A stretch of DNA of 64,000 nucleotides, from IMG/VR virus record IMGVR_UViG_3300044971_004534. The stretch is one strand, 5' to 3'. Source of the DNA: a virus. The first letter of the stretch is position 1. Each line of letters opens with the position of its first letter. The notes beneath the pieces are model-generated. The model did not search any database. It had not been told where the DNA came from and worked only from the letters and a program-made list of their open reading frames with translations. Below are positions 21,417 through 46,767 of this stretch, in pieces. Made by a program: the position numbers and the translations under genes.

Positions 21417-21446
21417 TATGGGGGACAGGGGCGAAAGCCCCTCTCC

Positions 21447-21480
21447 CTCTTTTTCCCCCTCCGTGGGGGAAGTTGGAGAG
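21447..21480 (+). promoter_or_regulatory. conserved intergenic cassette copy 4
   Basis: core 21447-21459 after hairpin 21427-21442; TTG +14..16; leader with AAGGAG to ATG 21563. Confidence 0.55.
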
Positions 21481-21562
21481 TCAGCCGGATGTTCCGGTTG
21501 ACAGTAGCACTTGAGAGCCACAAACCAAGTCGCATGACTTGTTTAGGTGGCAAGGAGAAAAG

Positions 21563-22213
21563 ATGGCTAACACCATCAGCAACGCATCGGTCGTCGTCAG
21601 CAACGCTCAGGCTCACGCCCTGATCCGTACCTCCCTCGCTAAGAGCGGTTCGTGCAAGACGATGAAGGGTAACTCCACGGCTGACACCATGTTGGTGGAC
21701 AAGTCGCGTGGTGAGAAGTACGCCATTGACGCGACCGTTCGCATGACGGGAACGATCAGCGTGGAGCAGAACGGCACGATCAAGAAGCGTCTTGATCGGT
21801 TCAAGTTGTTCACTCAGGCTGTCATCAATCTGACTCGTCAGGGTGCGCCCATCAACAAGGCTCTCATCATCGGTGAGATGGATCGCCTGTGGACGCTTCA
21901 CAAGGACAACCGTGACCTCAAGCAGATCGACAGCGAGACTTTCGATTCTGTCCTTGGGGAACTCTTTGGACGGGATTTCTGCGACCGGATGTACGCTCCG
22001 GTTGACGAGTCCGCTCCGAAGGCGGGTGACTTCAGCGTGAGCGACCTCAGCATCGACATCCTCAACTCCATCGTTGGGGCTGTCGGGTCGGAGAATCCCG
22101 CTGTGTGGAACATCACTCCCACTCCGGTTGCAGCCGTCACTCATGCTGCGGGTGGACCGCAGAATGATGCGGATGCTAAGAACAGCAAGCCTGTTCGCAG
22201 GAAGCGGAAGTGA
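21563..22213 (+). CDS. hypothetical protein
   Basis: ATG 21563 after CAAGGAGAAAAG, frame of ORF-track 21539..22213. Confidence 0.6.
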   Translation: MANTISNASVVVSNAQAHALIRTSLAKSGSCKTMKGNSTADTMLVDKSRGEKYAIDATVRMTGTISVEQNGTIKKRLDRFKLFTQAVINLTRQGAPINKALIIGEMDRLWTLHKDNRDLKQIDSETFDSVLGELFGRDFCDRMYAPVDESAPKAGDFSVSDLSIDILNSIVGAVGSENPAVWNITPTPVAAVTHAAGGPQNDADAKNSKPVRRKRK

Positions 22214-22263
22214 CCAATAATCGGGCGGGGAGTGGGGGTAAAACCCCCTCCCCGTTCGATACG

Positions 22264-22297
22264 CTCGTTTTCCCCCTTCCCTCTTTAGGTTGGGGTA
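22264..22297 (+). promoter_or_regulatory. conserved intergenic cassette copy 5
   Basis: core CTCGTTTTCCCCC 22264-22276; TTG +14..16; A at +21. Confidence 0.5.
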
Positions 22298-22340
22298 TAA
22301 GAAAAATCAAGAATCTTCTTACATTTGTTACTAACATCAC

Positions 22341-22368
22341 TTGACACAAATAAGAAGCGTTCTATGAT
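22341..22368 (+). promoter_or_regulatory. sigma70-type promoter TTGACA-N16-TATGAT
   Basis: TTGACA 22341-22346, TATGAT 22363-22368, upstream of 22450. Confidence 0.45.
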
Positions 22369-22449
22369 TTGCTCATATTGATCCATCGCTGCCGAGGGTC
22401 AATCTGATTCATCCAATCGGCAGTTCTTACTAACAGGAGTTTCTTCAAA

Positions 22450-23121
22450 ATGAAGAACAGCAACACGGGCATGGTTCTTGCCCCGAACCCGGCTGACATC
22501 ATCAGCCGTCAGTTGAAGTTGGACCGCAACACTTTCCTTCAGGCTGTCAACCTCTACAACTCGCTGACGCAGTTGGATCAGTCAGCGACGGTTGCCGCCC
22601 CGAACGAAGGTGGCGAGGAGGACACGGGCAAGCGTGGTCCCGGTCGCCCGAAGGGGTCGAAGAACCGGAAGCCCGGTCGCCCGAAGGCGAAGCGTGGTCC
22701 CGGTCGCCCGAAGAAGAAGCGTGGTCCGGGTCGCCCCAAGGCGAAGAAGGGTCCGGGTCGCCCCGCTGCCAAGCGTGGTCCCGGTCGCCCGAAGGGGTCG
22801 GTTGCCAAGCGCAAGACGGTGAAGGGTGGCGCAACCGCCTCTCGCCGTGGTCGCAAGGCGAAGAACCCGAACGGCATGACCATGCGCGATGCGGTCACTA
22901 ACGCTCTCCGCAACGCCAATGGTCCGGTGAAGGCTCCTGCCATCGCTGAAACCCTCAAGGGTCAGGGCTTTACGAGCAAGTCGCTCAACACTCAGGTGGC
23001 TCAGGAGTTGAGCCGCATGGTGACTGATGGACTTGCCAGCCGCCCTGAGCGTGGTTCGTATGCTTGGTCGGGCAGCAACGCCCCGGCAGAGCAGACGGCT
23101 GAAGTCGCTCAGACCGCCTGA
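22450..23121 (+). CDS. AT-hook repeat DNA-binding protein with C-terminal H1/winged-helix-like domain
   Basis: Seven GRP cores: KRGPGRPKG, KPGRPKA, KRGPGRPKK, KRGPGRPKA, KKGPGRPAA, KRGPGRPKG...; nucleotide repeat GGTCCCGGTCGCCCGAAG. Confidence 0.8.
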   Translation: MKNSNTGMVLAPNPADIISRQLKLDRNTFLQAVNLYNSLTQLDQSATVAAPNEGGEEDTGKRGPGRPKGSKNRKPGRPKAKRGPGRPKKKRGPGRPKAKKGPGRPAAKRGPGRPKGSVAKRKTVKGGATASRRGRKAKNPNGMTMRDAVTNALRNANGPVKAPAIAETLKGQGFTSKSLNTQVAQELSRMVTDGLASRPERGSYAWSGSNAPAEQTAEVAQTA

Positions 23122-23140
23122 GTCTGATTGAAAAAGTTCC

Positions 23141-23184
23141 AACGGCGGGTCGCCCTAAAAAAGCGACTCGCCGTTGTGCTTTTG
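23141..23184 (+). terminator. rho-independent terminator
   Basis: AACGGCGGGTCGC / GCGACTCGCCGTT 13-bp stem (one mismatch) then TGCTTTTG. Confidence 0.7.
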
Positions 23185-23221
23185 TATCACTTGCGAGAAA
23201 TCTTGGATAGTACCCAATGAG

Positions 23222-23470
23222 ATGCCCGAACCTCGTATCAATCAGGCTACGCAAACCATTGGGAACGGAATCGCTTGGGACTCCATCAAGGGTCTTATCA
23301 CGCATTTTATTTCTAGTGACGGCAAGACCGTGTGTGGCAAAGATGTGAGTGGCGGCGCCTCTTACGGATGGTATCCAAGCAAGAAGGATGAAAAAACCAG
23401 GATTTGTCCTGACTGCGCTAAACGCAAAACTGTTCCCGTAGCTCAACTGGATAGAGCAGCCGCCTTCTAA
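23222..23470 (+). CDS. hypothetical Zn-ribbon-like protein (uncertain)
   Basis: ATG 23222 in frame of ORF-track 23174..23470; C...CPDC; last 39 nt overlap tRNA-Arg, which lowers confidence. Confidence 0.35.
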   Translation: MPEPRINQATQTIGNGIAWDSIKGLITHFISSDGKTVCGKDVSGGASYGWYPSKKDEKTRICPDCAKRKTVPVAQLDRAAAF

Positions 23471-23505
23471 GCGGCAGGTTACTGGTTCGAGCCCAGTCGG
23501 GAACG
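23432..23505 (+). tRNA. tRNA-Arg(UCU)
   Basis: Acceptor GTTCCCG/CGGGAAC, anticodon stem GCCGC/GCGGC, loop CTTCTAA, T-arm CTGGTTCGAGCCCAG. Confidence 0.9.
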
Positions 23506-23538
23506 CTTAGTCTCATAATAAAAGTGGACAGAATGGAC

Positions 23539-23567
23539 TTGACACTCCATTGAACCAACGCTATACT
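23539..23567 (+). promoter_or_regulatory. sigma70-type promoter TTGACA-N17-TATACT
   Basis: TTGACA 23539-23544, TATACT 23562-23567; AAAGGAG before ATG 23619. Confidence 0.6.
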
Positions 23568-23618
23568 ATGTATGTCTGAGTTTTATTCTTCATTTACCTT
23601 TTACAAAAGGAGTTCAAC

Positions 23619-23909
23619 ATGAGTCACATTTCTGTTCGCAGTTCGTCTATTCGTCTGACTGAAGAAAATGCAACACCTCGTCAGAGGCTTCATGGATGGG
23701 TGTTCCCTCCAAGTCCTGTCACGCAGGGAGTTCTTGTGGGCATGAACGATGCTCTTGCTGAGGAGATCATCGGCATGATCCGTGACTGCTGCTCTGATGA
23801 CAATGGCAACATGATTCTTGATGGATCAAATGCCGATCTGCTGACTTTTGCTAGCCGTCTTGAGCAGAACATTGCTCAGAAGGCGATGCGGAAAACAGAT
23901 CGTGAGTAA
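23619..23909 (+). CDS. hypothetical protein
   Basis: ORF track; SD AAAGGAG 7 nt upstream. Confidence 0.6.
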   Translation: MSHISVRSSSIRLTEENATPRQRLHGWVFPPSPVTQGVLVGMNDALAEEIIGMIRDCCSDDNGNMILDGSNADLLTFASRLEQNIAQKAMRKTDRE

Positions 23910-23947
23910 AGGACTTTTCCCAGTTCCATAGAAATATGGGCTGTGAA

Positions 23948-24302
23948 GGGGCTGAACTGGTTTCGATTGCTGAAGGACTATTCGATACTGCACGACGAGG
24001 CTGATGGGCAACTCGTAAAAAGCCGATCAAACAACAACCGCCAACGAATCGTTGATGGCTGTCGCTGCTTGATGCAGCAAAGTTCTTAGAAGTTGGACAC
24101 TTGCTTCTAAGAACTGTCTGAAGTGTCGATCAGCGTACTGCGAAGTTCCAACGCATAAGGCGCTGAAGTTAATATTATATGATTTGGAACTTTCAAAGGA
24201 CTCATGGTACGAGGACTCCTTTGATCGACGGACTCGTACCTAGCGTGGAGAAGGTGCGATAGGACTTTTGCCAACACAGGGGTTCGACTCCCCTCGGCTC
24301 CA
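23948..24302 (+). ncRNA. ssrA: tmRNA (SsrA), tag ADQTTTANESLMAVAA
   Basis: 5' GGGGCTGAACTGGTTTCGA; 3' T-arm GGGGTTCGACTCCCC plus acceptor CGGCTCC-A pairing with the 5' end incl. G3:U; tag ORF GCC 24022 to TGA 24072 after an A-rich tract; no encoded CCA. Confidence 0.8.
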
Positions 24303-24311
24303 TTCAGCAAG

Positions 24312-24345
24312 CCCTCGTTCAGAGAAATCTGGGCGAGGGATTTTC
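24312..24345 (+). terminator. rho-independent terminator after tmRNA
   Basis: CCCTCG ... CGAGGG stem followed by ATTTT. Confidence 0.5.
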
Positions 24346-24368
24346 TACTAAATACAGAAAGGGATTCA

Positions 24369-24611
24369 ATGGAAATGGTTTACGGGATCGGTATCGCTAT
24401 TTGCTCTGTGGCTTCCGCTTACTTTGGCTGGAAGTTCGGTTACGCTCAGGGAAACAAAGACGGACACAAAACCGGGTACGATCATGGGGTGACTGCTGCC
24501 ATTCACGCTAACAAAAACGCTATTTTCCGTCAGAGTAAGCCAAGGCTTATGTATGGCGCAAAAAAGATCGTGAATGAAAAAAGCAAGCAAGAAGAAGTCT
24601 GGATTGGTTGA
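24369..24611 (+). CDS. small membrane protein
   Basis: ORF track; N-terminal helix VYGIGIAICSVASAYFGW. Confidence 0.55.
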   Translation: MEMVYGIGIAICSVASAYFGWKFGYAQGNKDGHKTGYDHGVTAAIHANKNAIFRQSKPRLMYGAKKIVNEKSKQEEVWIG

Positions 24612-24651
24612 GATTCCGTATCACTTCTCTATCTGTTGGATATTACTAGGT

Positions 24652-24725
24652 GGGAGATTAGCTCAGCGGTCAAGAGCAGGCGACTCATAATCGCTTGGTC
24701 GTGGGTTCGAACCCCACATCTCCCA
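24652..24725 (+). tRNA. tRNA-Met(CAU) elongator or tRNA-Ile2(CAU, lysidine type)
   Basis: Acceptor GGGAGAT/ATCTCCC, anticodon loop CTCATAA, T-arm GTGGGTTCGAACCCCAC; lacks initiator GGG/CCC anticodon stem. Confidence 0.85.
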
Positions 24726-24799
24726 TTATGCCTAGACGGATAAAGCTTTTACCGTGGCGTATGCCTAGTCACTTTTACGAATATCAAGGAGAAGAAAAA

Positions 24800-25449: not shown

Positions 25450-25472
25450 GAGCCAAGGAGAGAGGGATGGGG

Positions 25473-25509
25473 TAGCCCCGATTGTCGGAGATCGGGGCTA
25501 TCTTTTTTT
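25473..25509 (+). terminator. rho-independent terminator
   Basis: TAGCCCCGAT / ATCGGGGCTA 10-bp stem followed by TCTTTTTTT. Confidence 0.8.
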
Positions 25510-25582: not shown

Positions 25583-25588
25583 ATAGAC

Positions 25589-25855
25589 ATGGAGCGCAAT
25601 CCTCTATACAGTAAGAGTCGAAAGACAAGCCGTATCATCAATCAGGTTGATAATACGCCGTCTTTGCCTCAGCCAATCCTCAGTCCGATGGTGCGAGTTG
25701 GACTGTACAACTTGGTAACTGGAAGGAATGCGAGTCCTGTTGCGGGTAGCGGTGCTTCATTGAACCAGTATTATGATTCTTTGGACGCTCAGGGTATTGC
25801 GTATCCTGAGTTCGGACCCAATCTTGTGAAACTCAATAAGCCCCCGGAAGGGTGA
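25589..25855 (+). CDS. hypothetical protein
   Basis: ORF track; followed by a strong hairpin. Confidence 0.45.
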   Translation: MERNPLYSKSRKTSRIINQVDNTPSLPQPILSPMVRVGLYNLVTGRNASPVAGSGASLNQYYDSLDAQGIAYPEFGPNLVKLNKPPEG

Positions 25856-25889
25856 GGGGTTGAGGGTTCGCCCTCCCCCTCACCTTTTT
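25851..25889 (+). terminator. rho-independent terminator fused to cassette copy 6
   Basis: GGTGAGGGG / CCCCTCACC 9-bp stem followed by TTTTT. Confidence 0.7.
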
Positions 25890-25935: not shown

Positions 25936-26853
25936 ATGCCCATCCGACACCTCGGTTATGCCTGTCAGAATATGACCCTCGGGGAGACTAAGCCAGTCTC
26001 CAAGCGTGTCTTTACGGACAGAACGCTTCGGATGGACGGGTTTAGTCTGCGGCGAGTAAATGAACTTGCCCTGTCGAACTCCCGTGATCTGCTCAAGATC
26101 ATGTGGTGGAATGTTGAAAATAAAATCAACTTCTTCCGCATTGGTTCAGGGATGTTTCCGTTCATGGATCATCCCGAACTGAAGTACGGTCTTGATGACC
26201 TCGCTACTGCGTTCACGATCAAGGGCGTGTTTCAGAATGTCGGCAACCTTGCCCGTGAGCATGGTATCCGGCTGTCAATGCACCCCGGTCCATACACCTG
26301 TCTTGCATCCCCTGATGAGGCAGTTGTCGCTAAGTCCTTGCTGTGCGTGGAGATGCACTCAATGGTTGGCGATCTTCTTGGAATGGATGACTTCCCAATC
26401 AACATCCACATTGGTGGTGTGTATGACGGCAAGGAAGGGTGTGCAGAGCGGTTTGTCCACAACTTCTCCCGACTTTCTCCACGCGCTCAATCAAGGCTGA
26501 CGCTTGAAAACGATGACAAGGAGGGAATGTGGACGATTCGTGACCTTCTTCCGGTGCATGAAAAGACAGGTATTCCACTTGTTCTTGACATTCATCACCA
26601 CTCGCTCAACACAGGTGGAGATGAACTGACAGCCGTAGCAGACATCGCTCTTTCCACTTGGAACGGAAAAACTCCAAAAGTTCATTATAGTGAACCTAAA
26701 GAGGGTTGCCGTCCCCAAGCACATTCCGACTACATCGTGAATGAGATTCCCGAACTTTGTCCAGTCAGACAATACGATGTGATGATTGAGGCAAAGGCAA
26801 AGGAACTCGCTCTCCTCAAATACAGAAACCTCTTTTTCCCCCTCTCTCGGTGA
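25936..26853 (+). CDS. uvdE: UV damage endonuclease UvdE
   Basis: RHLGYACQN..., FFRIGSGMFPF, RLSMHPGPY, HIGGVY, RLTLENDD, LVLDIHHH, VMIEAKAKE are the UvdE TIM-barrel signature; start set by cassette geometry and SD. Confidence 0.9.
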   Translation: MPIRHLGYACQNMTLGETKPVSKRVFTDRTLRMDGFSLRRVNELALSNSRDLLKIMWWNVENKINFFRIGSGMFPFMDHPELKYGLDDLATAFTIKGVFQNVGNLAREHGIRLSMHPGPYTCLASPDEAVVAKSLLCVEMHSMVGDLLGMDDFPINIHIGGVYDGKEGCAERFVHNFSRLSPRAQSRLTLENDDKEGMWTIRDLLPVHEKTGIPLVLDIHHHSLNTGGDELTAVADIALSTWNGKTPKVHYSEPKEGCRPQAHSDYIVNEIPELCPVRQYDVMIEAKAKELALLKYRNLFFPLSR

Positions 26854-26863
26854 ACTTACGATA
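26830..26863 (+). promoter_or_regulatory. conserved intergenic cassette copy 7 (leaderless class)
   Basis: core 26830-26842 inside the uvdE 3' end; TTA +14..16; ATG 26863 at +21. Confidence 0.55.
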
Positions 26864-27975
26864 TGCCCGCACGCATCTACGACAATCTCTCTGTTGATTC
26901 GGTCAGCGTCAGCAACTCTCACTCTGCTGCCCTTATTGGTGACAGCATCCTTGGGTGGGGTAGCCGCGCCAAGAGCAAGTTGGACTTCCCGGTTGGCAAG
27001 TTCGTGAGCGCAGCCTGTGGCTTCTCTCACTCTGCCGCCGTTGACTCCAACGGCAGTCTTTTCACCATTGGCAACGCGCTTGGTGGCAAGTTGAACAGCG
27101 GCAATCTGAACAGTCGTGGCAAGTTCAAGACCGTTCGCTGCTCTCGCAACTACACCGCTGCGACCATTGAGTACGGTGACGGAAAGCATCGGATTGCCGT
27201 GTTTGGCGATCAGAAGCCGTACAGCGTTCTCCCGTCCACGATTTACTCCAAGACGGCTAAGGATGAAGGTGTGTTCACCTTTGACTCCAACATCGGAGAC
27301 TTTGACATTGATGACAACGGGACTCTCGTTGTTGATGATCTCAAGGGTTCGATCTCCGTCATTCGTGGCAGCATTTGCAGCCTGAGCGGACTTCCCGGTA
27401 AAGTTACCAAGGTTCGTTGCGGCGACCCCAACACCACGACCATTGCAATCGCCCATGTGAATGACAGGGCATATCTGCTCACCCGCACCCACACGGGAAC
27501 TCAGCAGATTGCGGAGATTGCGGGTGATGTCACCGATGTGATCTGTGCAAACAAGTTCTATGGATATGTTGTTTCCAAGCGTGAACTCGTTGTCGTTGGA
27601 GAGCATTTCGGAAACATTCGCCTTCCCGATGGTTGGTCGATTGAGAGCGCCGATGGCGGCAATAATGGTTATGCAATCTGTGTGAGCGACAATGAAGGCA
27701 GTCGCCATCTTGTCCTTGTTGGAGACAACACCAAGAACAAGGAACTTGTGATCGAAGGTCACGATCATCGTGAATGCCCCCGCAAGGACGGCATGATCTA
27801 TGAGATTCGTGAGGACAAGACCGCCAAGGCGAAGCCGATTGTCGTTGCCGCTGTCAGCGCGATCACCGATGATTGCGATGATTCCGACTACGAGTGTGAG
27901 CCGTGCAAGTTCCGCTTTGTCGCAAAGTCCCCTGTTTGCCCGATGTGTAAGGGCGAGGTGGCGGTCAATGTTTGA
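26863..27975 (+). CDS. RCC1-like beta-propeller repeat protein with C-terminal Zn-ribbon
   Basis: HSAALIGDSILGWGS, SHSAAVDSNGSLFTIGN repeats; C-terminal CEPC...CPMC; repeat assignment is weak. Confidence 0.55.
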   Translation: MPARIYDNLSVDSVSVSNSHSAALIGDSILGWGSRAKSKLDFPVGKFVSAACGFSHSAAVDSNGSLFTIGNALGGKLNSGNLNSRGKFKTVRCSRNYTAATIEYGDGKHRIAVFGDQKPYSVLPSTIYSKTAKDEGVFTFDSNIGDFDIDDNGTLVVDDLKGSISVIRGSICSLSGLPGKVTKVRCGDPNTTTIAIAHVNDRAYLLTRTHTGTQQIAEIAGDVTDVICANKFYGYVVSKRELVVVGEHFGNIRLPDGWSIESADGGNNGYAICVSDNEGSRHLVLVGDNTKNKELVIEGHDHRECPRKDGMIYEIREDKTAKAKPIVVAAVSAITDDCDDSDYECEPCKFRFVAKSPVCPMCKGEVAVNV

Positions 27976-28200: not shown

Positions 28201-28285
28201 GGGACTGTGGCGGAATCGGCATACGCAGCAGACTTAAAATCTGCCGACCTCAAAAGTCTTGTGGGTTCAAGTCCCACCAGTCCCA
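28201..28285 (+). tRNA. tRNA-Leu(UAA)
   Basis: Acceptor GGGACTG/CAGTCCC, anticodon stem GCAGA/TCTGC, loop CTTAAAA, long variable arm, T-arm GTGGGTTCAAGTCCCAC. Confidence 0.9.
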
Positions 28286-28319
28286 CTCTTTTTCCCCCTC
28301 TCCCGGTAGGATTGCGGCA
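28286..28319 (+). promoter_or_regulatory. conserved intergenic cassette copy 8 (leaderless class)
   Basis: core 28286-28298 abuts tRNA-Leu 3' end; TTG +14..16; ATG 28319 at +21. Confidence 0.55.
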
Positions 28320-34907: not shown

Positions 34908-35927
34908 ATGGCACACAACATCGTGACTGACGGCGCTCTCCGCGACCGGATGCTGATTGAGGGCGACAAGGGTTGGCACGGGCTGGGCGAGGATCGCAAG
35001 TCGATCTCCGCGAAGGATGTCCGTGAGGCGTTCCCGTGGGATTGGCAGATGGACGATCTCCTGCTGCCCAACGGCAACAAGGTGGACGGCTTCAAGGCTG
35101 TGACGAGCGAGGGCAACGCCGTGGGCGTTGTCGGTGACTCCTACACCATGATCGGCATTGACGATGTGGTGTCTCTCGCGGAGGACATCATCCTTCAGCA
35201 CGGCACGGGTCGCATCGTGTCGGCAGGTACGCTTCACGGTCGGCAGGACTTCTTCCTTGACCTTGAGTTGGGCAAGGAGTTCCGCAACGGCGATGATGTG
35301 AACAAGCCGTACATCGGTCTGTCCAACAACGCGGTCGGGTCGCGTCACTTCATCGGTGGAGCGCATATGCACCGCATCGTCTGTGCGAACACGCTCAACC
35401 TGATGATCGGTGAGGCAAAGACTTCTCCGCGCTGCCTCAAGGTGCGCCACACGAAGTCCGCTTTCAACCGCCTGTCGGAAGCGAAGCGCATCCTTGGTAT
35501 CGCTTGTGCGGCGTTCGACAAGGCTGACGCAGAGATGCAGGCGATGATCGCCAAGTCTCTGACCGATGCAGAGGTCGAAGCGTACTACAACACGATCATG
35601 CCCGTGCAGGCAGTCCCCGGACTCTCTGCGGGCGAGAACGCGGAGCAGTACGAGGCGAAGGTCGAGAAGATCGAACGCGCTAACCGCAAGACGGAGCGTG
35701 TCCGCGATGTGTGGTGGGACACGCTGAACACGGAGCGTCAGATTCTCAAGTCTGCGTCGCCCAACCTGTGGCTCGCTATGAACAGCGTGACCAAGTGGGC
35801 GCAGCACGACCGCTCTGTGCGCGGCGAGTCCGATGATCCGATGATGCGCCTGTGGAGCAATCGGTTCAGCGATGGGTTCGACCGGACGAACGAGGCTCAC
35901 GATATCGCGGTGGCGATGCTCAAGTGA
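34908..35927 (+). CDS. DUF932 (phage/plasmid-like protein, TIGR03299-type)
   Basis: GWHGLG..., DSYTMIG, RIVCANTLN, LKVRHTKS motifs match my memory of DUF932. Confidence 0.8.
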   Translation: MAHNIVTDGALRDRMLIEGDKGWHGLGEDRKSISAKDVREAFPWDWQMDDLLLPNGNKVDGFKAVTSEGNAVGVVGDSYTMIGIDDVVSLAEDIILQHGTGRIVSAGTLHGRQDFFLDLELGKEFRNGDDVNKPYIGLSNNAVGSRHFIGGAHMHRIVCANTLNLMIGEAKTSPRCLKVRHTKSAFNRLSEAKRILGIACAAFDKADAEMQAMIAKSLTDAEVEAYYNTIMPVQAVPGLSAGENAEQYEAKVEKIERANRKTERVRDVWWDTLNTERQILKSASPNLWLAMNSVTKWAQHDRSVRGESDDPMMRLWSNRFSDGFDRTNEAHDIAVAMLK

Positions 35928-35934
35928 CCGGGAT

Positions 35935-35969
35935 GGGGAGGGGCGCAAGCCCCTCCCCTCTCTCGTTTT
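35935..35969 (+). terminator. rho-independent terminator fused to cassette copy 17
   Basis: GGGGAGGGGC-gcaa-GCCCCTCCCC stem, then TCTCTCGTTTT. Confidence 0.75.
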
Positions 35970-35995
35970 CCCCCTCAACCGGAGTGTTTGAGATA
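35962..35995 (+). promoter_or_regulatory. conserved intergenic cassette copy 17 (leaderless class)
   Basis: core 35962-35974; TTG +14..16; ATG 35995 at +21. Confidence 0.55.
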
Positions 35996-36465
35996 TGTCG
36001 CTAGTCAACTATCGAACGATGACCCCATACGAGTGGACCCCGGAGCAGGCGCGTAATGGGAAGTTTGAGACTGCCAAGCGCAAGGTCGCCAAGAAGTTGA
36101 AGGGCAGGCTTCCAAAGGGATGGTCTTACAAGATCATCGCTCCATACAACCACGGCAAGGTGCGGTGGGAGATCAAGATGGATTATGGTCCGCACCCGTG
36201 GATCACGATTCGTTGGCGTCCGTGCATGGCTGAAAAGGATTCCGTGCTTCACTATTGGATGGAAGTGAATGAGTCCAATCAAGGTTGTCCTGAGTTTGAC
36301 CCTTTGAGTGGTGCAAATGCGGTCATGCGTGATCTGCCGATCATCCTTGATGTGGTGCAGGACATCTTTGACGGACTGAATCCTGATCCGCTCATGCAAC
36401 TCCACGCGATGGCAAAGAAGGCAACTGCCTCGTTTTCCCCCTCATCCGTGCAGGTTGAGGCATGA
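35995..36465 (+). CDS. hypothetical protein (paralog of 33559..34086)
   Basis: ORF track. Confidence 0.6.
   Translation: MSLVNYRTMTPYEWTPEQARNGKFETAKRKVAKKLKGRLPKGWSYKIIAPYNHGKVRWEIKMDYGPHPWITIRWRPCMAEKDSVLHYWMEVNESNQGCPEFDPLSGANAVMRDLPIILDVVQDIFDGLNPDPLMQLHAMAKKATASFSPSSVQVEA
36429..36462 (+). promoter_or_regulatory. conserved intergenic cassette copy 18
   Basis: core 36429-36441; TTG +14..16; ATG 36462 at +21 opens only a doubtful 58-aa ORF. Confidence 0.45.
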
Positions 36466-36507
36466 GGAGCCTTTATTCCAAGTCGATAAAGACGAGCAGG
36501 CTGAAGT

Positions 36508-36541
36508 CTCTTTTTCCCCCTCCAACGGTACACCTGGTAAC
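36508..36541 (+). promoter_or_regulatory. conserved intergenic cassette copy 19
   Basis: core 36508-36520; CTG at +14..16 (variant); leader with GAAAGG to ATG 36589. Confidence 0.45.
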
Positions 36542-39118: not shown

Positions 39119-39131
39119 AGAAGGCAACTGC

Positions 39132-39177: not shown

Positions 39178-39723
39178 ATGCCAAACTGGTGTCTGAACAA
39201 GGTTCGTATCAAGGCAAAGCCCGCAACTCTCGCAGCGATCAAGGAAACGCTGAAGGGCAAGGAGTATGTTCGCCCCTTCAACTTTGAGAAGCGAGAGGAT
39301 GGCGAACTCACCTGTGTGGACAGCATCTTCTGCTTCCACAGCATCATTCCGCAGCCTGACGAGATTCTCGACCCGGAAGATCCGCGCCGCAAGGCAAAGA
39401 TGTCATCTGCGGAGATTCTTGAGCGTCTGTCCAAGAAGGAAGAGAAGGGTATGCCAGAGTGGTGGAACTGGCGTGTCAACAACTGGGGCACGAAGTGGTC
39501 GGTGAACGGAGAGGACATCGGATTTGAGGAGAAGAAGGGTTCAATGATCTACTCCTTTGATACCGCATGGGCACCTCCTGAACCCGTGATCCAAAAACTG
39601 TCGGAGATGTTCCCCGATGCGAACATCCTGCTCTCGTTTTACGAGCCGGGGTGTATCGGTCGCGGAAGCGTCACCTACAAGGATGGCGAAATCATCAAGA
39701 CAACCGGAGTGGGCGTTGACTGA
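39178..39723 (+). CDS. DUF1281 / Api92-like ferredoxin-fold protein
   Basis: MPNWCLNKVRI start and NNWGTKW motif match my memory of DUF1281. Confidence 0.6.
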   Translation: MPNWCLNKVRIKAKPATLAAIKETLKGKEYVRPFNFEKREDGELTCVDSIFCFHSIIPQPDEILDPEDPRRKAKMSSAEILERLSKKEEKGMPEWWNWRVNNWGTKWSVNGEDIGFEEKKGSMIYSFDTAWAPPEPVIQKLSEMFPDANILLSFYEPGCIGRGSVTYKDGEIIKTTGVGVD

Positions 39724-39761
39724 CGACGGAATGGGGTGGCGGGATGAAATACTCCCGCCGC

Positions 39762-39795
39762 CTCGTTTTCCCCCTGCCCGAAAGGACTTGGAGCA
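39762..39795 (+). promoter_or_regulatory. conserved intergenic cassette copy 24 (leaderless class)
   Basis: core 39762-39774 after hairpin 39738-39759; TTG +14..16; ATG 39795 at +21. Confidence 0.55.
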
Positions 39796-41531: not shown

Positions 41532-41960
41532 ATGACGATGACGAAGATCAGCCTCGATGTGAAGTCGAAGGGTGCTGCGGAGATCGTGAAGGAACTCCTC
41601 AACCTCCCCGAAGGCTTCACCTCCGGTCGCGTGGAAGTGGCGTTCAACTTCACCGCCGACAAGGGTGCGGACGAGACTTACACCGCCGTGCAGGAACTCT
41701 GCCCGTGGACGCTCGTGGCGGTTCTCATGTCCAAGATCAACGGGGTTACGCAGGATGCCGTGATCGACTGCATCCCCACGATCATGGAGATGAACGACAA
41801 GCAGCGCAAGGTGCTGCGCGAGTCGCTGAAGGAGTCCACCACGAAGCGGCTTGAGGAGATGGGCGCATTCGTGCAGAAGGTGCGCTCCGGCAAGACGCGC
41901 ATCGAAGTGGCGGGCGATGCCACCGTGACGGGGGATAACCTCCCGGTCGCAACCGCCTAA
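41532..41960 (+). CDS. hypothetical protein
   Basis: ATG 41532 in frame of ORF-track 41487..41960. Confidence 0.6.
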   Translation: MTMTKISLDVKSKGAAEIVKELLNLPEGFTSGRVEVAFNFTADKGADETYTAVQELCPWTLVAVLMSKINGVTQDAVIDCIPTIMEMNDKQRKVLRESLKESTTKRLEEMGAFVQKVRSGKTRIEVAGDATVTGDNLPVATA

Positions 41961-42001
41961 CAGACCCCCGGAACGGAGGGGAGGCAAGTAGTGCGCCTCC
42001 C

Positions 42002-42035
42002 CTCTTTTTCCCCCTCAACCGGAGTATTTGCGGCA
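42002..42035 (+). promoter_or_regulatory. conserved intergenic cassette copy 27 (leaderless class)
   Basis: core 42002-42014 overlapping hairpin 41976-42004; TTG +14..16; ATG 42035 at +21. Confidence 0.55.
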
Positions 42036-42148
42036 TGGACACAATCATCCTCATGCTCATCGGATCGAACCTTGCCTTGATTGGCTACCTGTGCCACAAG
42101 GACATGAAGGGCAAGCGCAGCAAGTCGCGCAGGAAGGCAACGGCGTGA
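42035..42148 (+). CDS. small membrane protein (37 aa)
   Basis: Hand-translated MDTIILMLIGSNLALIGYLCHKDMKGKRSKSRRKATA; start fixed by cassette geometry; GTGA overlap with next gene. Confidence 0.4.
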   Translation: MDTIILMLIGSNLALIGYLCHKDMKGKRSKSRRKATA

Positions 42149-42456
42149 AGTCGAACCCTTACATTCAGATGCTTGAACCTCTCATCGGTGGAACGATCAC
42201 GAAGATCATCTACGATGAAAGCGACCCGCATGGTGATCCGTTCTGCGGCTTCATCGTGACGCGACCCGAAGCCGTGTATCAGGTGATTGCCTTGCGTGAT
42301 CCCGAAGGCAACGGAGCCGGGTTCGTGGAAGTGACGAAGGTAAGAACTTGGCTGAAGGACACTTGCGACAAGTGTGGCGGACTGATCAACGGGATTGACA
42401 AGTTCCCCGCAGTTGGTACAATGGGCGTACCGATCTGCACAGATTGCGACAACTAA
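42145..42456 (+). CDS. hypothetical protein
   Basis: GTG 42145 after AGGAAGG, frame of ORF-track 42028..42456. Confidence 0.5.
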   Translation: MKSNPYIQMLEPLIGGTITKIIYDESDPHGDPFCGFIVTRPEAVYQVIALRDPEGNGAGFVEVTKVRTWLKDTCDKCGGLINGIDKFPAVGTMGVPICTDCDN

Positions 42457-42502
42457 TCCTTTCTGCGAAGGGAGTGCGTTCCGAAGTGAATGCGCTCCCT
42501 TC

Positions 42503-42805: not shown

Positions 42806-42938
42806 TCCATCGCTAGACCCCTCTGACGAGGACAACTACGACGGCGGCGAGTTCTTCTACGAGGAGCCGTCTGACGAGCCAATGTGGGAGCCAAACGAGT
42901 TCTACACCGATCCCATGTACGGGTCGGAAACTTTCTAA
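42798..42938 (+). CDS. small acidic protein (46 aa)
   Basis: ATG 42798, 8-nt overlap; MSDPSLDPSDEDNYDGGEFFYEEPSDEP...; frame of ORF-track 42639..42938. Confidence 0.4.
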   Translation: MSDPSLDPSDEDNYDGGEFFYEEPSDEPMWEPNEFYTDPMYGSETF

Positions 42939-42986
42939 TCTTCTTGCGTCCTGCGGGGCGGGGTACTTCCTTTCCCCCGCCCCGCT

Positions 42987-43020
42987 ATCTTTTTCCCCCT
43001 TTGCCGACAAACTTCTAGCA
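42987..43020 (+). promoter_or_regulatory. conserved intergenic cassette copy 29 (leaderless class)
   Basis: core ATCTTTTTCCCCC 42987-42999 after hairpin 42953-42985; TTC at +14..16 (variant); ATG 43020 at +21. Confidence 0.5.
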
Positions 43021-43244
43021 TGGACAAGAGAACTTCCCCCATCAACGGTCTGTACCTCCACGATGTCTACACCGATGCTGCCCGCATCAAGTCGTGCTTC
43101 CCGTGGGCTGATGTGAAGCCCGGAATGGAGATGGAGTGCTGGTCTACTCCGTTCAACTTCCCGTCGCCCACCGATTTCAACATCCTCATGCTGCGAGACA
43201 TGAACGGCGAACTGATCGCCACGAAGCGCGAGGAGGGTTACTAA
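43020..43244 (+). CDS. hypothetical protein
   Basis: ORF track. Confidence 0.55.
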   Translation: MDKRTSPINGLYLHDVYTDAARIKSCFPWADVKPGMEMECWSTPFNFPSPTDFNILMLRDMNGELIATKREEGY

Positions 43245-43247
43245 ACC

Positions 43248-43281
43248 CTCTTTTTCCCCCACCGTGGTAGACTTTTGGGCA
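43248..43281 (+). promoter_or_regulatory. conserved intergenic cassette copy 30
   Basis: core 43248-43260 after hairpin 43233-43250; TTG +15..17; A 43281 at +21; GAAAGGA leader to ATG 43299. Confidence 0.5.
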
Positions 43282-43298
43282 GAAAGGAACTTCCCCCA

Positions 43299-43487
43299 AT
43301 GGCTGAACTGCGAGTCACGATCAACCTGAACAACGACGCCTTCCATGTGGACGAGTTCAACGAGGTGTCCCGCGTCTTTGAGAGTCTTGCGCGCAAGGTG
43401 GCGCGAGGCGACATGAGGAACCACGCCATCATGGACTCCAACGGCAACACGGTCGGTTCGTTCACCGTGATTGACGAGGATGCGTGA
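43299..43487 (+). CDS. hypothetical protein
   Basis: ATG 43299 in frame of ORF-track 43275..43487. Confidence 0.55.
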   Translation: MAELRVTINLNNDAFHVDEFNEVSRVFESLARKVARGDMRNHAIMDSNGNTVGSFTVIDEDA

Positions 43488-43708
43488 TGGAGTATCCCAA
43501 CAAGTGCATCAAGTGCGGAGAGGTTCACCAAGACCCCAACGCAGGACGATGGACGGAATGCAGGGAGTGCGAGGCTCGTAGCCCAAGAGTCATCACCCCT
43601 TCCTACTTCCATTTCGTGACGGGAATGACAGACGAACAACTGGAGGCAACCTATGAAGCCCAACGACAACTCGTCCTCAACCACAAGCGGAACAAAGTGC
43701 GGATGTGA
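43487..43708 (+). CDS. Zn-ribbon small protein
   Basis: ATG 43487 (TGATG overlap; ORF track lists GTG 43484); CIKC...CREC. Confidence 0.55.
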   Translation: MEYPNKCIKCGEVHQDPNAGRWTECRECEARSPRVITPSYFHFVTGMTDEQLEATYEAQRQLVLNHKRNKVRM

Positions 43709-43826
43709 CGGGTGTGACGGGTCATTCGATCCCGATGCCCTCACGGAGTGCAGGTACGACTATCCCGATGAATCGTGGGAGTGGTTCAAGTTCTGCCCCG
43801 ATTGCCTCAAGGCTGACGCATTCTAG
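43653..43826 (+). CDS. Zn-ribbon small protein (57 aa), overlaps previous gene by 56 nt
   Basis: Hand-translated MKPNDNSSSTTSGTKCGCDGCDGSFDPDALTECRYDYPDESWEWFKFCPDCLKADAF; GGAGG 6 nt before the ATG. Confidence 0.4.
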   Translation: MKPNDNSSSTTSGTKCGCDGCDGSFDPDALTECRYDYPDESWEWFKFCPDCLKADAF

Positions 43827-43834
43827 GCAGCCGC

Positions 43835-43868
43835 CTCGTTTTCCCCCTGCCTCGCACCGCTTGGGGCA
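43835..43868 (+). promoter_or_regulatory. conserved intergenic cassette copy 31
   Basis: core 43835-43847; TTG +14..16; A 43868 at +21; leader GAAAGGAAACTC to ATG 43881. Confidence 0.55.
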
Positions 43869-43880
43869 GAAAGGAAACTC

Positions 43881-44198
43881 ATGCAGCCCAAGTATGTGAA
43901 CCTCACCGACAAGCCCGCTGACTACTCCGACAACAACGGTCACGGTCAGCCCACCCACCTCCAGTCGCGTAGCACCGGAAGGTGGATCAAGACTCCCGAT
44001 GGCTACTGCCGTCGTGACGATGGCATCATCTCCCACAAGTACCTCAAGAACGAGGAAGGCGAGTGGGAGTGGTTCCCCGTCCCGTCTACGGAGGAACTCA
44101 ACTTCATGGCGTTCGACTCCGTGTGCCAAACGCCGTGGGGCGACGATGTGGAACCCGATCACCCCAAGTCGTGGCTCCGCATCTTGGGAATGATCTGA
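43881..44198 (+). CDS. hypothetical protein
   Basis: ORF track. Confidence 0.6.
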   Translation: MQPKYVNLTDKPADYSDNNGHGQPTHLQSRSTGRWIKTPDGYCRRDDGIISHKYLKNEEGEWEWFPVPSTEELNFMAFDSVCQTPWGDDVEPDHPKSWLRILGMI

Positions 44199-44250
44199 AC
44201 CCCCGGAAGGGATGGGGGAGTTGATGGCAACATCCTCCCCTGTCCTTCCT

Positions 44251-44284
44251 CTCGTTTTCCCCCAGTCGGGTAGTTTTTCGGGCA
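44251..44284 (+). promoter_or_regulatory. conserved intergenic cassette copy 32
   Basis: core 44251-44263; TTC at +14..16 (variant); A 44284 at +21; GAAAGG leader to ATG 44302. Confidence 0.5.
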
Positions 44285-44301
44285 ACAAGAAAGGTACTTC
44301 A

Positions 44302-44523
44302 ATGAACGACACCCTCCTCAGCATCTTCATGGCTTGCGACACGATCAAGGCGACCATCCTTGAGAACGCTCAACTCAAGGAGGAGAATGCTCAACTCCGT
44401 GAGCGCATCAAGGCGGCTGACGCTGCGCGTGATGAGGGATTCCGTTCTGCGGAGCGGTATCACGAGGAGATGGTGAAGTCCCTGCTCAGCGGGGAACTCA
44501 TCGTCAACAGGGGAGGAAACTAG
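44302..44523 (+). CDS. hypothetical coiled-coil protein
   Basis: ATG 44302 in frame of ORF-track 44212..44523. Confidence 0.55.
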   Translation: MNDTLLSIFMACDTIKATILENAQLKEENAQLRERIKAADAARDEGFRSAERYHEEMVKSLLSGELIVNRGGN

Positions 44524-44531
44524 GCAACCGC

Positions 44532-44565
44532 CTCGTTTTCCCCCTTCCCCGCTCCCGTTAGGACA
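44532..44565 (+). promoter_or_regulatory. conserved intergenic cassette copy 33
   Basis: core 44532-44544; TTA +14..16; A 44565 at +21; leader hairpin GCCCC-aaa-GGGGC plus GAAAGGA to ATG 44596. Confidence 0.55.
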
Positions 44566-44595
44566 CAGCCCCAAAGGGGCAGAAAGGATCGCAAG

Positions 44596-44958
44596 ATGAA
44601 GAAGATGCTCGTTATCAAGATGAACGGTCAGGTGGAGGAGCGCGAGAACACGGGTCTGGAGTCCCTCCAGTCGGGTGTCGGTGGCTGGATCGAAGGCATC
44701 GACTTGGGCAACGGCGCGATGATGTACTGCAACGAGGAGGGCAAGTGCAACGGTCTGCCCGCTAACCTCGTCGCTACGCGCCTCTACGAGAACGCATTCG
44801 GCAAGGGCATCGACATCGTCGTGGGCGATGTGGTCATCGTCGGCTACATCTCCCCCTCCGGTGAGAACGACGGCGAGGACTACGACTACCCCGCGTGGGT
44901 GTCGGACGCAGCACGCAAGGAAGCGGAAGCGTTCGCACCGCGCTGCACGGTGTCGTGA
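44596..44958 (+). CDS. DUF3846-like protein
   Basis: LQSGVGGWIEGIDL...YCNEEGKCNGLPAN matches my memory of DUF3846. Confidence 0.65.
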   Translation: MKKMLVIKMNGQVEERENTGLESLQSGVGGWIEGIDLGNGAMMYCNEEGKCNGLPANLVATRLYENAFGKGIDIVVGDVVIVGYISPSGENDGEDYDYPAWVSDAARKEAEAFAPRCTVS

Positions 44959-44995
44959 ACAAGAGAAGGGGAGGGAGTCGAAAGGCTCCCTCCCT

Positions 44996-45029
44996 CTCTT
45001 TTTCCCCTCGCACCGCACTGCTTGGGGCA
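44996..45029 (+). promoter_or_regulatory. conserved intergenic cassette copy 34
   Basis: core CTCTTTTTCCCCT 44996-45008 after hairpin 44968-44995; TTG +14..16; A 45029 at +21; GAAAGGA leader to ATG 45047. Confidence 0.55.
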
Positions 45030-45046
45030 GAAAGGAAAGCAACAGA

Positions 45047-45217
45047 ATGGGTAAGGGAATGATTCGAATCGCCGTAGTGATCTGTGTGGCGTTCACCGTG
45101 TCTGCCGCCATCATGTGGGCATTCATCAACTGGCTAGACGCCAATCCCGTAGTGGTGGCTGGGTTCCTTGGAATGGGCTACGCAAGCAACCATTTCTTCA
45201 ACCCACCGCGCCGCTAG
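45047..45217 (+). CDS. small membrane protein (56 aa)
   Basis: ATG 45047 in frame of ORF-track 44828..45217; IRIAVVICVAFTVSAAIMWAF helix. Confidence 0.45.
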   Translation: MGKGMIRIAVVICVAFTVSAAIMWAFINWLDANPVVVAGFLGMGYASNHFFNPPRR

Positions 45218-45277
45218 CACCGAAGCACCGCACCGCGCACCGCTTTTCGCGGGGAAGGGAATCTAGGGGAACAAATC

Positions 45278-45311
45278 CTCTTTTTCCCCTCCCCGCCAAG
45301 CCGTTGGAACA
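45278..45311 (+). promoter_or_regulatory. conserved intergenic cassette copy 35
   Basis: core CTCTTTTTCCCCT 45278-45290; TTG +14..16; A 45311 at +21; GAAAGGA leader to ATG 45325. Confidence 0.55.
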
Positions 45312-45324
45312 GAAAGGAACCCCC

Positions 45325-45552
45325 ATGAACGAAGAATGGTGGAAGAACACCAAGCCAGACCCGGTCAGGAGTGGCTACAGCGTGGTCGATACGGTCACGC
45401 TGGAGGAACGCGAACTCTCCGTACATGACGCAAACCACCGCTTGCAGCAGGAATGCAACTCCCTGCGGGCGAAACTGCGAAACATGGAGGAGCAGATCAA
45501 GAAGTTGCAGATCGAACGCGACCTGCTCATGCAGATCGTTCTCAAGAAGTAA
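45325..45552 (+). CDS. hypothetical coiled-coil protein
   Basis: ATG 45325 in frame of ORF-track 45115..45552. Confidence 0.55.
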   Translation: MNEEWWKNTKPDPVRSGYSVVDTVTLEERELSVHDANHRLQQECNSLRAKLRNMEEQIKKLQIERDLLMQIVLKK

Positions 45553-45580
45553 GCCACATACGGCTCACTTCCACCTGTGG

Positions 45581-45614
45581 CTCGTTTTCCCCCTCTCCCT
45601 CCCCTCTTGGGGAG
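45581..45614 (+). promoter_or_regulatory. conserved intergenic cassette copy 36
   Basis: core 45581-45593 after hairpin 45553-45581; TTG +14..16; GAAAGGA leader to ATG 45633. Confidence 0.55.
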
Positions 45615-45632
45615 CAGAAAGGAAGAAACGCC

Positions 45633-45791
45633 ATGAAGTCAGTCGTAGACATCGCTCGCAAGATCGCGTGGGAGACTCGCAGGGACGAGATCGCTGCGGG
45701 TCGTCGCGTCCGCTCCAAGACTTGGGGCAAGAAGTCGCGTGATCCCCGCAAGGCACGACGCGAAAGCAGGCGCGAACTCTCGCGTATGTAG
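45633..45791 (+). CDS. small basic protein (52 aa)
   Basis: ATG 45633 in frame of ORF-track 45453..45791. Confidence 0.45.
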   Translation: MKSVVDIARKIAWETRRDEIAAGRRVRSKTWGKKSRDPRKARRESRRELSRM

Positions 45792-45810
45792 AGCGCGCCC
45801 AAGCAGCCGC

Positions 45811-45844
45811 CTCGTTTTCCCCCTGCCCCGCTCCCGTTGGGTCA
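45811..45844 (+). promoter_or_regulatory. conserved intergenic cassette copy 37
   Basis: core 45811-45823; TTG +14..16; A 45844 at +21; leader hairpin plus GAAAGGA to ATG 45875. Confidence 0.55.
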
Positions 45845-45874
45845 GCCCCAAAGGGGCAGAAAGGACGCTGCAAC

Positions 45875-46078
45875 ATGAAGAAGCAGCACGACGCGGGTTT
45901 CGGGTGCATGGGGGACACGGTGGAGGTGGAGGCGCGTGTGACCGGCAAGGGCGGGCGGTCGTGGACGAGCCTCGACCGCAAGGTGGAGGCGGAGGGGCAG
46001 AGCCTCGCCTACATGGGTCGCCTGTGGTTCTGCGGCAAGGTCTGGGAATGCCCGACCCCTGAAACCGCCCTCGCCTGA
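45875..46078 (+). CDS. hypothetical protein
   Basis: ORF track. Confidence 0.55.
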   Translation: MKKQHDAGFGCMGDTVEVEARVTGKGGRSWTSLDRKVEAEGQSLAYMGRLWFCGKVWECPTPETALA

Positions 46079-46149
46079 AGCGGCGGAACCGTCCCCGAAG
46101 GGGAGCCGAAAGCGGCTCCCCTTCCTCATTTGGTGAACTAGGCAGCCGT

Positions 46150-46183
46150 ATCGTTTTCCCCCTGCCTCGCTCCCGTTGTGGTG
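46150..46183 (+). promoter_or_regulatory. conserved intergenic cassette copy 38
   Basis: core ATCGTTTTCCCCC 46150-46162; TTG +14..16; leader hairpin GCCCC-aac-GGGGC plus GAAAGGA to ATG 46216. Confidence 0.55.
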
Positions 46184-46215
46184 TAGCCCCAACGGGGCAG
46201 AAAGGATACGCAAGA

Positions 46216-46698
46216 ATGGACAAGCAGCAGAAGATGTCGGCTCTCGCGCAGATCATCGGGAGCAACCCGCAGAAGGCGGAGTTCGCGGCGAGCCTCCTGG
46301 GTGCGCTGGCGAAGGGCAACCCGACCCCCAAGCAGGCGGAGTGGATCGACCGCCTCATCAACGAGGAAGCGAACCCCGTCCCGTCGCTCACGCTCGCCCC
46401 GCTCGTGGAGGCGTTCCGCGCAGCGGCGCAGGCGGTCAAGTTCCCGAAGGTCGTCGTGGAGGCTGACGGCGTGGAGTGGACGCTCTCGTACACTCGCCCC
46501 GACTCCGACAAGGCGAAGCCCGAGAACAAGGACACGGTGGGCATCGCATCGGGCAAGTGGGGCGACCCCGCCGCGAAGTGGGCAGGGCGCATCCTCGCGG
46601 ATGGCACGGTGAAGTGGGGCAAGGACGCGACCCCCGCTCTCGCGGACGCCATCGCCGCCATCCCGACCGCTCCGCTCCCCCTCAAGACGCGGAAGTGA
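46216..46698 (+). CDS. hypothetical protein
   Basis: ORF track. Confidence 0.6.
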   Translation: MDKQQKMSALAQIIGSNPQKAEFAASLLGALAKGNPTPKQAEWIDRLINEEANPVPSLTLAPLVEAFRAAAQAVKFPKVVVEADGVEWTLSYTRPDSDKAKPENKDTVGIASGKWGDPAAKWAGRILADGTVKWGKDATPALADAIAAIPTAPLPLKTRK

Positions 46699-46733
46699 AC
46701 AGCGGAGGGGCGGGAGTCGAAAGGCTCCCGCCC

Positions 46734-46767
46734 CTCGTTTTCCCCCTGCACCGCACCCGTTGTGGTG
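46734..46767 (+). promoter_or_regulatory. conserved intergenic cassette copy 39
   Basis: core 46734-46746 after hairpin 46707-46734; TTG +14..16; same leader as copy 38 to ATG 46798. Confidence 0.55.

Follow-up and report, generated by a model that had tools for sequence, protein, structure and literature searches.

Stable hairpins before promoter-like cores: a candidate terminator-and-restart cassette in a freshwater phage

The 64,000-nucleotide stretch of the IMG/VR virus record IMGVR_UViG_3300044971_004534 (hereafter the window, meaning the whole stretch that was analyzed) is phage-like and contains a block of 39 same-strand copies of a short core motif, CTC[GT]TTTTCCCCC, between positions 16508 and 46746. 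About one third of these cores are preceded by a large, GC-rich hairpin just behind the stop codon of the upstream gene. Selection acts on these hairpins as RNA structures of the coding strand. The reading that we favor, with a probability of roughly 0.55, is that such a junction combines a terminator or attenuator hairpin with a promoter-like core at which transcription restarts. The hairpins, found at the 3' ends of about one third of the block genes, would stop or attenuate read-through and protect the upstream 3' end, and the core would restart transcription near its position 34. The repeated cassettes also double as joints for the swapping of gene units.

Hairpins and cores at the gene junctions

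The cores were identified by a pattern scan and, like all features described below unless stated otherwise, lie on the plus strand; the minus strand of the whole window holds a single match. The CTC[GT]TTTTCCCCC pattern is followed by 13 variable positions, TTG at positions 27-29, four further variable positions and a purine at position 34, which is present in 37 of the 39 copies. In the logo, the conserved blocks are positions 1-13 and T27 T28 G29, with A/G34 also conserved. The start codon, ATG or GTG, stands exactly at position 34 in 18 genes, and the remaining genes have AGAAAGGA-type leaders of 13-19 or 31-33 nt, or leaders of 42-116 nt. The core is considered promoter-like because of its two conserved blocks, the purine at position 34 and a spacing that is fixed whatever the leader length. 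These properties fit a phage-specific promoter with a putative start point near position 34. The logo contains neither TTGACA nor TATAAT and therefore does not follow the host sigma-70 consensus.

An island at 22.3-25.6 kb is built differently. It contains two sigma-70-like promoters with 11 of 12 matches each (22341-22368, between core 22264 and the gene that this core precedes, and 23539-23567), and three ordinary hairpin-plus-T-run terminators with no core behind them (23141-23175, 24312-24339 and 25469-25504). In the tandem at 22264-22450, the core is followed about 65 nt on by the near-consensus sigma-70-like promoter and then by a gene with repeated KRGPGRPK (AT-hook-like) units. The order of core and TTGACA/TATAAT is conserved in a 74 %-identity relative (L008, at approximately 5984-6100). 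Since core and sigma-70-like promoter stand in tandem before one gene, the arrangement supports the view that the core may be a second, phage-specific promoter class.

The stability of the hairpins was assessed against 200 dinucleotide shuffles per hairpin and expressed as z-scores. The first-pass annotation had listed eleven large hairpins directly before cores within 21427-46746 and had proposed a comparison of their free energies with shuffled sequence. Ten of the eleven withstood this comparison, with -9.1 to -28.7 kcal/mol, z-scores from -3.35 to -7.82 and only 0-1 of 200 shuffles as stable. The remaining one, at 45553-45581 with a 6-bp stem and a 17-nt loop, is a weak candidate (-8.2 kcal/mol, z -2.0, 11 of 200 shuffles as good). 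Four further hairpins were absent from that list (20096-20132, 22220-22260, 44212-44243 and 46097-46124), the first of which lies outside its range.

The series begins behind the AAA ATPase gene (stop at 20085) with the hairpin 20096-20132 (GCAA loop, -31.6 kcal/mol, z -5.2, 0 of 200 shuffles), which ends 3 nt before the T-run of core 20133. The DUF2201 gene (stop at 21416) is followed by 21420-21449 (GAAA loop, -20.9 to -22.8 kcal/mol, z -3.6), whose stem includes the CTC of core 21447, and the gene 21563-22213 by 22220-22260 (-33.2 kcal/mol; z -2.7 for slightly different ends), which stops 3 nt short of core 22264 and 7 nt short of its T-run. The hairpin 25851-25884 (TTCG loop, -25.8 kcal/mol, z -4.3, 1 of 200 shuffles) overlaps the stop of the gene 25589-25855 and has a TTTTT of its own before core 25890. 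Behind the DUF932 gene (stop at 35927), the hairpin 35930-35962 (GCAA loop, -24.4 to -28.7 kcal/mol, z -4.65) adjoins core 35962. Two hairpins take the CTC of the following core into the stem, namely 39733-39764 behind the gene 39178-39723 (-23.7 kcal/mol, z -4.3 for the inner part; core 39762) and 41976-42004 behind the gene 41532-41960 (-20.7 kcal/mol, z -5.5; core 42002).

A terminator-like 15-bp hairpin at 42467-42502 (-25.3 kcal/mol, z -7.8) precedes core 42503, and 42953-42985 (-25.8 kcal/mol, z -4.3) precedes core 42987. The small 7-bp hairpin 43233-43250 (-9.1 kcal/mol, z -3.35, 0 of 200 shuffles) holds the stop codon TAA in its loop and the CTC of core 43248 in its stem. Behind the gene 43881-44198, a moderate hairpin at 44212-44243 (-17.2 kcal/mol, z -2.2, 5 of 200 shuffles) lies 7 nt before core 44251 and 11 nt before its T-run. 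The hairpin 44968-44995 (GAAA loop, -24.5 kcal/mol, z -4.6) adjoins core 44996. The hairpin 46097-46124 behind the gene 45875-46078 (-24.6 kcal/mol; -30.6 kcal/mol and z -4.6 for a 45-nt cut) lies 25 nt before core 46150, with a TAGGCAGCCG upstream extension between the two. The last hairpin, 46705-46736 (GAAA loop, -28.7 to -32.0 kcal/mol, z -6.45), again has the CTC of its core, 46734, in the stem.

The association of stable hairpins with cores is also evident from the background of the region. Among the 45-nt segments directly upstream of cores, 12 of 39 fold at -20 kcal/mol or below, compared to 2.0 % of 10,485 background segments from the same region (binomial 8e-12), and 8 of 39 fold at -25 kcal/mol or below, compared to 0.65 % (binomial 2e-10). 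Almost all of the strongest plus-strand hairpins of the block either adjoin cores or are the ordinary terminators at 23141, 24312 and 25469.

Hairpins are present at only 12-14 of the 39 cores, and the distance from stop codon to core is bimodal. At about two thirds of the junctions this distance is 0-13 nt, or a tRNA precedes the core (18971, 28286), or the core lies inside the upstream open reading frame (ORF; core 26830). Gaps of 28-71 nt are nearly all filled by a hairpin that starts 2-18 nt past the stop; a weak or missing hairpin was found in such gaps only at 45581, at 45278 and at the doubtful core 36508. The stems comprise 10-17 pairs, are GC-rich and stand just 3' of the stop on the coding strand, as expected of intrinsic terminators. 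At 10-11 junctions the stem ends 0-4 nt before the T-run of the core, and at about five the CTC of the core is part of the stem. Because the core itself starts with T4-5, which places 4-6 T in the 8 nt past the stem, hairpin and core together have the full form of an intrinsic terminator. The T content at this place matches that of the three ordinary terminators of the island.

The first-pass annotation had suggested a compact terminator-plus-promoter module that resets transcription at nearly every gene. A compact module of hairpin followed by core does exist, in a terminator-then-promoter-like form, but its extent was overestimated. Since only about one third of the cores have a hairpin, most genes would lie in multi-gene, nested transcripts, and a single-gene insulated unit would apply only to a handful. 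With the hairpins as boundaries, the 30-kb block falls into about 13 units that are 0.45-10 kb long; several internal cores lie in most of these (for example, ten between the hairpins at 25851 and 35930).

Some further observations concern individual junctions. Two tRNA genes, for Gly and Leu, end 0-3 nt before a core (at 18895-18983 and 28201-28298, core included), and both of these cores have T at position 4; here the tRNA may take the place of the hairpin, and tRNA and core abut likewise in L008. The UvdE gene contains core 26830 (26830-26865) within its final 24 nt. At 36429-36520, two cores are separated by only 79 nt, namely 36429, which is inside the end of the gene 35995-36465, and 36508. 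The ATG at position 34 of core 42002 opens a frame of only 37 codons (42035-42148), and the long ORF near this core (42028-42456) lies in another frame and has a TTG start; either a frameshift or a gene for a small peptide may account for this. Four leaders of 31-33 nt have in common a small GCCCC-AAA/AAC-GGGGC hairpin immediately 5' of the AGAAAGGA ribosome site (44565-44590, 45844-45870, 46183-46210 and 46767-46792).

The large hairpins as selected RNA structures

Selection at the RNA level is seen within the window. The plus-strand folds contain 15 G-U pairs and the folds of the reverse complements contain one (binomial for the asymmetry 5e-4), and the plus strand is the more stable one in 10 of 14 hairpins, by 3.1 kcal/mol on average (Wilcoxon 0.009). 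GNRA or UUCG tetraloops make up about half of the 14 loops according to a manual classification. Chance GC palindromes are ruled out by the shuffles, the background segments and this strand asymmetry, and an Rfam-known RNA in the modules was rejected after a search of Rfam. All 14 hairpins (20096-46736) have a G-rich 5' arm and a pyrimidine-rich 3' arm, so that the latter forms, together with the core, a polypyrimidine run of 25-30 nt on the coding strand.

Relatives of the phage were found using the DUF2201 and DUF932 proteins as queries. Their contigs are matched by the block proteins at 100 %, 83-89 % and 74-76 % identity; gene order is kept between the window and the relatives, and the core motif varies by lineage. 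A DNA search of the phage collection returned tRNA matches only, and an exact-pattern scan of IMG/VR for the core-N13-TTG layout returned three single hits that were judged to be chance.

The hairpin behind the ATPase gene has orthologs in five lineages, with swaps between GCAA and TTCG loops. The orthologs of 21420-21449 in L005 and L023 have different stems, and the ortholog of 41976-42004 in L017 has another loop (GAAA) and another inner stem. Also in L017, the hairpins 35930-35962 and 39733-39764 are kept, and the stem of 42953-42985 is identical. Orthologous hairpins in the relatives fold at -21 to -34 kcal/mol despite changes of pairs and of loops (GCAA to TTCG, a 9-nt loop to GAAA). Because the loops of the orthologous post-ATPase hairpins fell out of register when aligned with MAFFT, per-lineage folds and RNAalifold were used instead. 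RNAalifold was applied to 13 hairpins, paralogs as well as orthologs, and at 6 of 11 pairs both partners have changed with the pairing preserved. Paired cells amount to 88.7 %, compared to 79.2 +/- 1.8 in shuffles, and cells with double changes to 14, compared to 4.8 +/- 1.7 (0 of 500 shuffles in both cases); controls with a slid register score below the true register.

The five mini-hairpins of the form AGGC-N4-GCCT that the first-pass annotation had described directly before cores are a different case. The sequence is present at these places (AGGCAACTGCCT at 36419-36430, the others at 39122, 40431, 43825 and 44522), but it does not qualify as a structure, because the folds are not significant (-4.7 to -6.1 kcal/mol and z-scores from -1.4 to -2.65, with 5-19 of 200 shuffles equally stable) and the pairing is lost in L017. 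Five like junctions, recognized by their sequence and their place in the gene order, were folded there; the 5' half A[A/G]GCAGCC persists, while the pairing is gone at four of the five. Copies that do not pair (AAGCAGCCGCC, AGTCAGTCGCC) belong to the same repeat families. AGGC-N4-GCCT is a conserved sequence extension of the core, (T)A(A/G)GCA(A/G)C(C/T)GCC, which often holds the upstream stop codon; at 46150 an extension of this type sits between hairpin and core.

The T-run in sister lineages and alternative readings

The core motif is swapped wholesale between lineages. It is TTTTCCCCC in the window, L005 and L017, CTAAAGTTCCCGTATCAGCGG in L023, AAATCCCGCAAACGG in L025, CCCGAAWCCCGAAAACGGGA in L006 and L029, and GACCCGAATCCCGAAAACGGGG in L008. 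In each lineage a strong hairpin precedes about one third of the cores, and the post-ATPase hairpin is orthologous in all five. Relatives with 74-86 % protein identity and the same gene order thus have five core motifs at the same junctions, as seen at the orthologous junctions of L023, L025, L006/L029 and L008. This motif switching suggests co-evolution with a phage-encoded reader. Four of the five motifs contain a fixed small hairpin such as CCCG-AAAA-CGGG.

The claim of the first-pass annotation that the U-tract of the hairpin is the TTTT of the core stands for the lineage of the window, where the core starts with T4-5. It does not extend further, as this T-run is present with or without a hairpin and the sister lineages are T-poor; it is lineage-specific. 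The 8 nt past the stem contain 4-6 T in the phage of the window and in L005 and L017, with means of 4.3-5.0 before TTTTCCCCC cores.

Several observations weigh against a terminator followed by a restart. Two thirds of the junctions are entirely without a hairpin. In the T-poor lineages L023, L025, L006 and L008, the next 8 nt contain 0.7-2.0 T on average (0-2 behind orthologous hairpins, with one exception), and these lineages do carry hairpins followed by T6-7, only away from cores, in the host-type promoter island. Even in the window, the T-run of the core is short (4-5) and is followed by C5. One sign of adaptation within this phage speaks for the favored reading, namely T instead of G at core position 4 beside 8 of 11 adjoining hairpins and at 9 of 28 other cores (Fisher 0.033), but this enrichment is weak and post hoc. 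As orthologous hairpins persist beside T-poor cores, any hairpin role common to the lineages needs no U-tract, which points to stabilization or to a non-canonical stop.

The strongest alternative takes up this point. The hairpins could be 3'-end protectors or processing barriers instead of terminators, with long transcripts running through them, 3' exonucleases trimming back to the hairpin after endonuclease cuts and thereby setting the stability of the upstream message, and the T-run being incidental. Hairpins kept beside T-poor cores in four sister lineages that have true T-run terminators elsewhere would be expected of such a role, as would very stable, tetraloop-capped stems selected at the RNA level, and comparably stable stems are found in repetitive extragenic palindromic (REP)-type and other 3' stabilizers. 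On the other hand, the tails in the phage of the window are as T-rich as its ordinary terminators, and T at core position 4 is enriched beside adjoining hairpins. We regard protection alone as rather unlikely, although it is the most serious competitor; the roles of protector and terminator are not exclusive.

Much more speculatively, termination and restart could be coupled. The hairpins might be U-tract-independent stops to which only one form of polymerase responds, the one that works from the lineage-specific cores; this could be a phage polymerase or the host core enzyme joined by a phage sigma factor. Transcripts would be released within the following promoter, which would take over the enzyme directly, so that the cassette would act as a terminate-and-reinitiate device resetting the transcription level between swappable gene cassettes. 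We consider this improbable. A search of the contigs of two relatives found no single-subunit RNA polymerase or sigma factor, a negative of little weight in records that are only about 20 % complete, and a Pfam search of ten further window proteins revealed no transcription factor.

An equally doubtful possibility is that the core is an RNA-level signal on one long transcript, either a cleavage site for a phage nuclease or a guide RNA, or a translation module, with the hairpins capping the 3' ends of the pieces. The rigid spacing between core and ATG and the Shine-Dalgarno-like purines in many spacers are in line with it, and motif switching between lineages fits any phage-encoded reader of sequence. 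However, the layout is the same even where the start codon is 42-116 nt away, and the logo, with its two blocks and a purine at constant distance from them, resembles that of a promoter. Rfam revealed no ribozyme in the window, which also lacks a clear plus-strand complement of the core (one match with the same pattern and a few one-mismatch matches lie on the minus strand).

Least probable is an action of the hairpins with the core on DNA or at initiation, as part of the promoter, as an insulator against promoter occlusion or as a cruciform recombination site, which would suit the CTC of the core within the stem at about five junctions, the marking of indel joints by cassettes and the G-rich 5' and C-rich 3' arm of every hairpin running into a pyrimidine core, but which conflicts with the two thirds of cores that lack a hairpin and so rule out that it is needed for core function, with strand-specific G-U pairs and tetraloops not expected of a DNA cruciform, and with indel breakpoints that lie in the core instead of the hairpin.

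Cassettes as joints and their relation to known systems

The first-pass annotation had noted the shared GAGTCGAAAGGCTC of the hairpins 44968 and 46707, and this was confirmed, with 81 % identity over 47 nt. The two are homologous members of one repeat family (D10) and differ by one double change from A-T to C-G. Its further suggestion that the module is duplicated along with genes was rejected, because the neighboring genes of these two hairpins are not similar and a comparison of 47 ORFs (called manually, one with a mis-set start) found no paralogs.

Instead, a comparison with L017 reveals an indel at cores. A 261-bp core-to-core unit at 42987-43247, which consists of a core and the gene 43020-43244, is absent from L017. 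Its breakpoints lie inside the repeated core, and the L017 alignment shows hairpin and core joined to the sequence past the next core; tblastn found no match for the gene 43020-43244 in L017. Four small genes have no match in L017 within the stretch covered, and two more lie beyond the end of that locus. In L017, the homolog of the gene 35995-36465 follows another core. The cassettes are shared by unrelated genes and serve as joints for the gain, loss and movement of gene units.

The closest known counterparts are the promoter-early stem-loops (PeSLs), composite terminator/promoter cassettes of T4-type phages (Arbiol et al. 2010, PMC2839356; Comeau et al. 2014, PMC4122927). A PeSL consists of a strong sigma-70-like promoter and a poly-G/poly-C stem-loop with demonstrated terminator activity, and PeSLs mediate modular shuffling (PMC2839356; PMC4122927); for PeSL211/210, termination by the stem-loop was shown with a reporter assay. 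As in PeSLs, the cassettes described here are short and intergenic, occur in tens of copies before small genes of unknown function, and join a promoter-like part to a stem-loop. The stems are likewise often poly-G then poly-C with G-T pairs, the 5' arms being 67-90 % purine, and indels and gene replacements between the window and L017 break at cassettes.

The differences are nevertheless considerable. The PeSL promoter follows the sigma-70 consensus (-35 TTGACA, -10 TATAAT, AT-rich upstream) and its stem-loop lies within or around the -35/-10 boxes, whereas here the core is phage-specific and not of the sigma-70 type and the hairpin stands wholly upstream of it. Moreover, only about one third of the copies here have a hairpin, and one sister lineage has replaced the core sequence of another. 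PeSLs have been shown to terminate transcription and to act as promoters, whereas in the present phage both activities, as well as the transcription start point, are predicted. By analogy, the cassette may be described as PeSL-like in function; it is not a PeSL by the sigma-70 criterion.

Compared to ordinary intrinsic terminators, the hairpins agree in their GC-rich stem of 10-16 bp, their short stable loop, their position past the stop on the coding strand and a T-run within 0-4 nt. They differ in that the T-run, with only 4-5 T, is at the same time the invariant beginning of the promoter-like motif that follows, and in that a T-run is lacking behind the orthologous hairpins of sister lineages. 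Inter-cistronic hairpins that set mRNA ends by processing include REP-type 3' stabilizers and the RNase III sites of the T7 early region. Like these, the present hairpins are stable, stand between genes that share one orientation, and could define or protect 3' ends even where there is no U-tract. Their stems, however, are short, nearly perfect and capped by tetraloops; typical RNase III substrates are longer, and REPs, unlike the present hairpins, are repeated in sequence.

The window further contains seven tRNA genes, or eight tRNA-type genes with the transfer-messenger RNA (tmRNA), and its genes include a helicase-like ATPase, a MoxR-type ATPase, DUF2201, UvdE and DUF932. The GC content is 50-58 % until about 47 kb and about 35 % thereafter. 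Since the 75-84 kb contigs of the relatives are rated as only 19-21 % complete, a phage genome of about 400 kb is implied, belonging to an uncultured freshwater phage.

If the favored reading of a terminator or attenuator hairpin with a promoter-like restart is true, composite terminator/promoter cassettes, previously described from T4-like phages and with host-type sigma-70 promoters, would extend to a huge freshwater phage with its own promoter-like motif, with the same tie between regulatory cassettes and gene shuffling. Near-identical gene orders with the same hairpins and five core motifs constitute a natural experiment for the core-reading phage factor and for the importance of the U-tract. 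For annotation, the cassettes would provide the boundaries of transcript units and the start codons for about 45 small genes of no known function.

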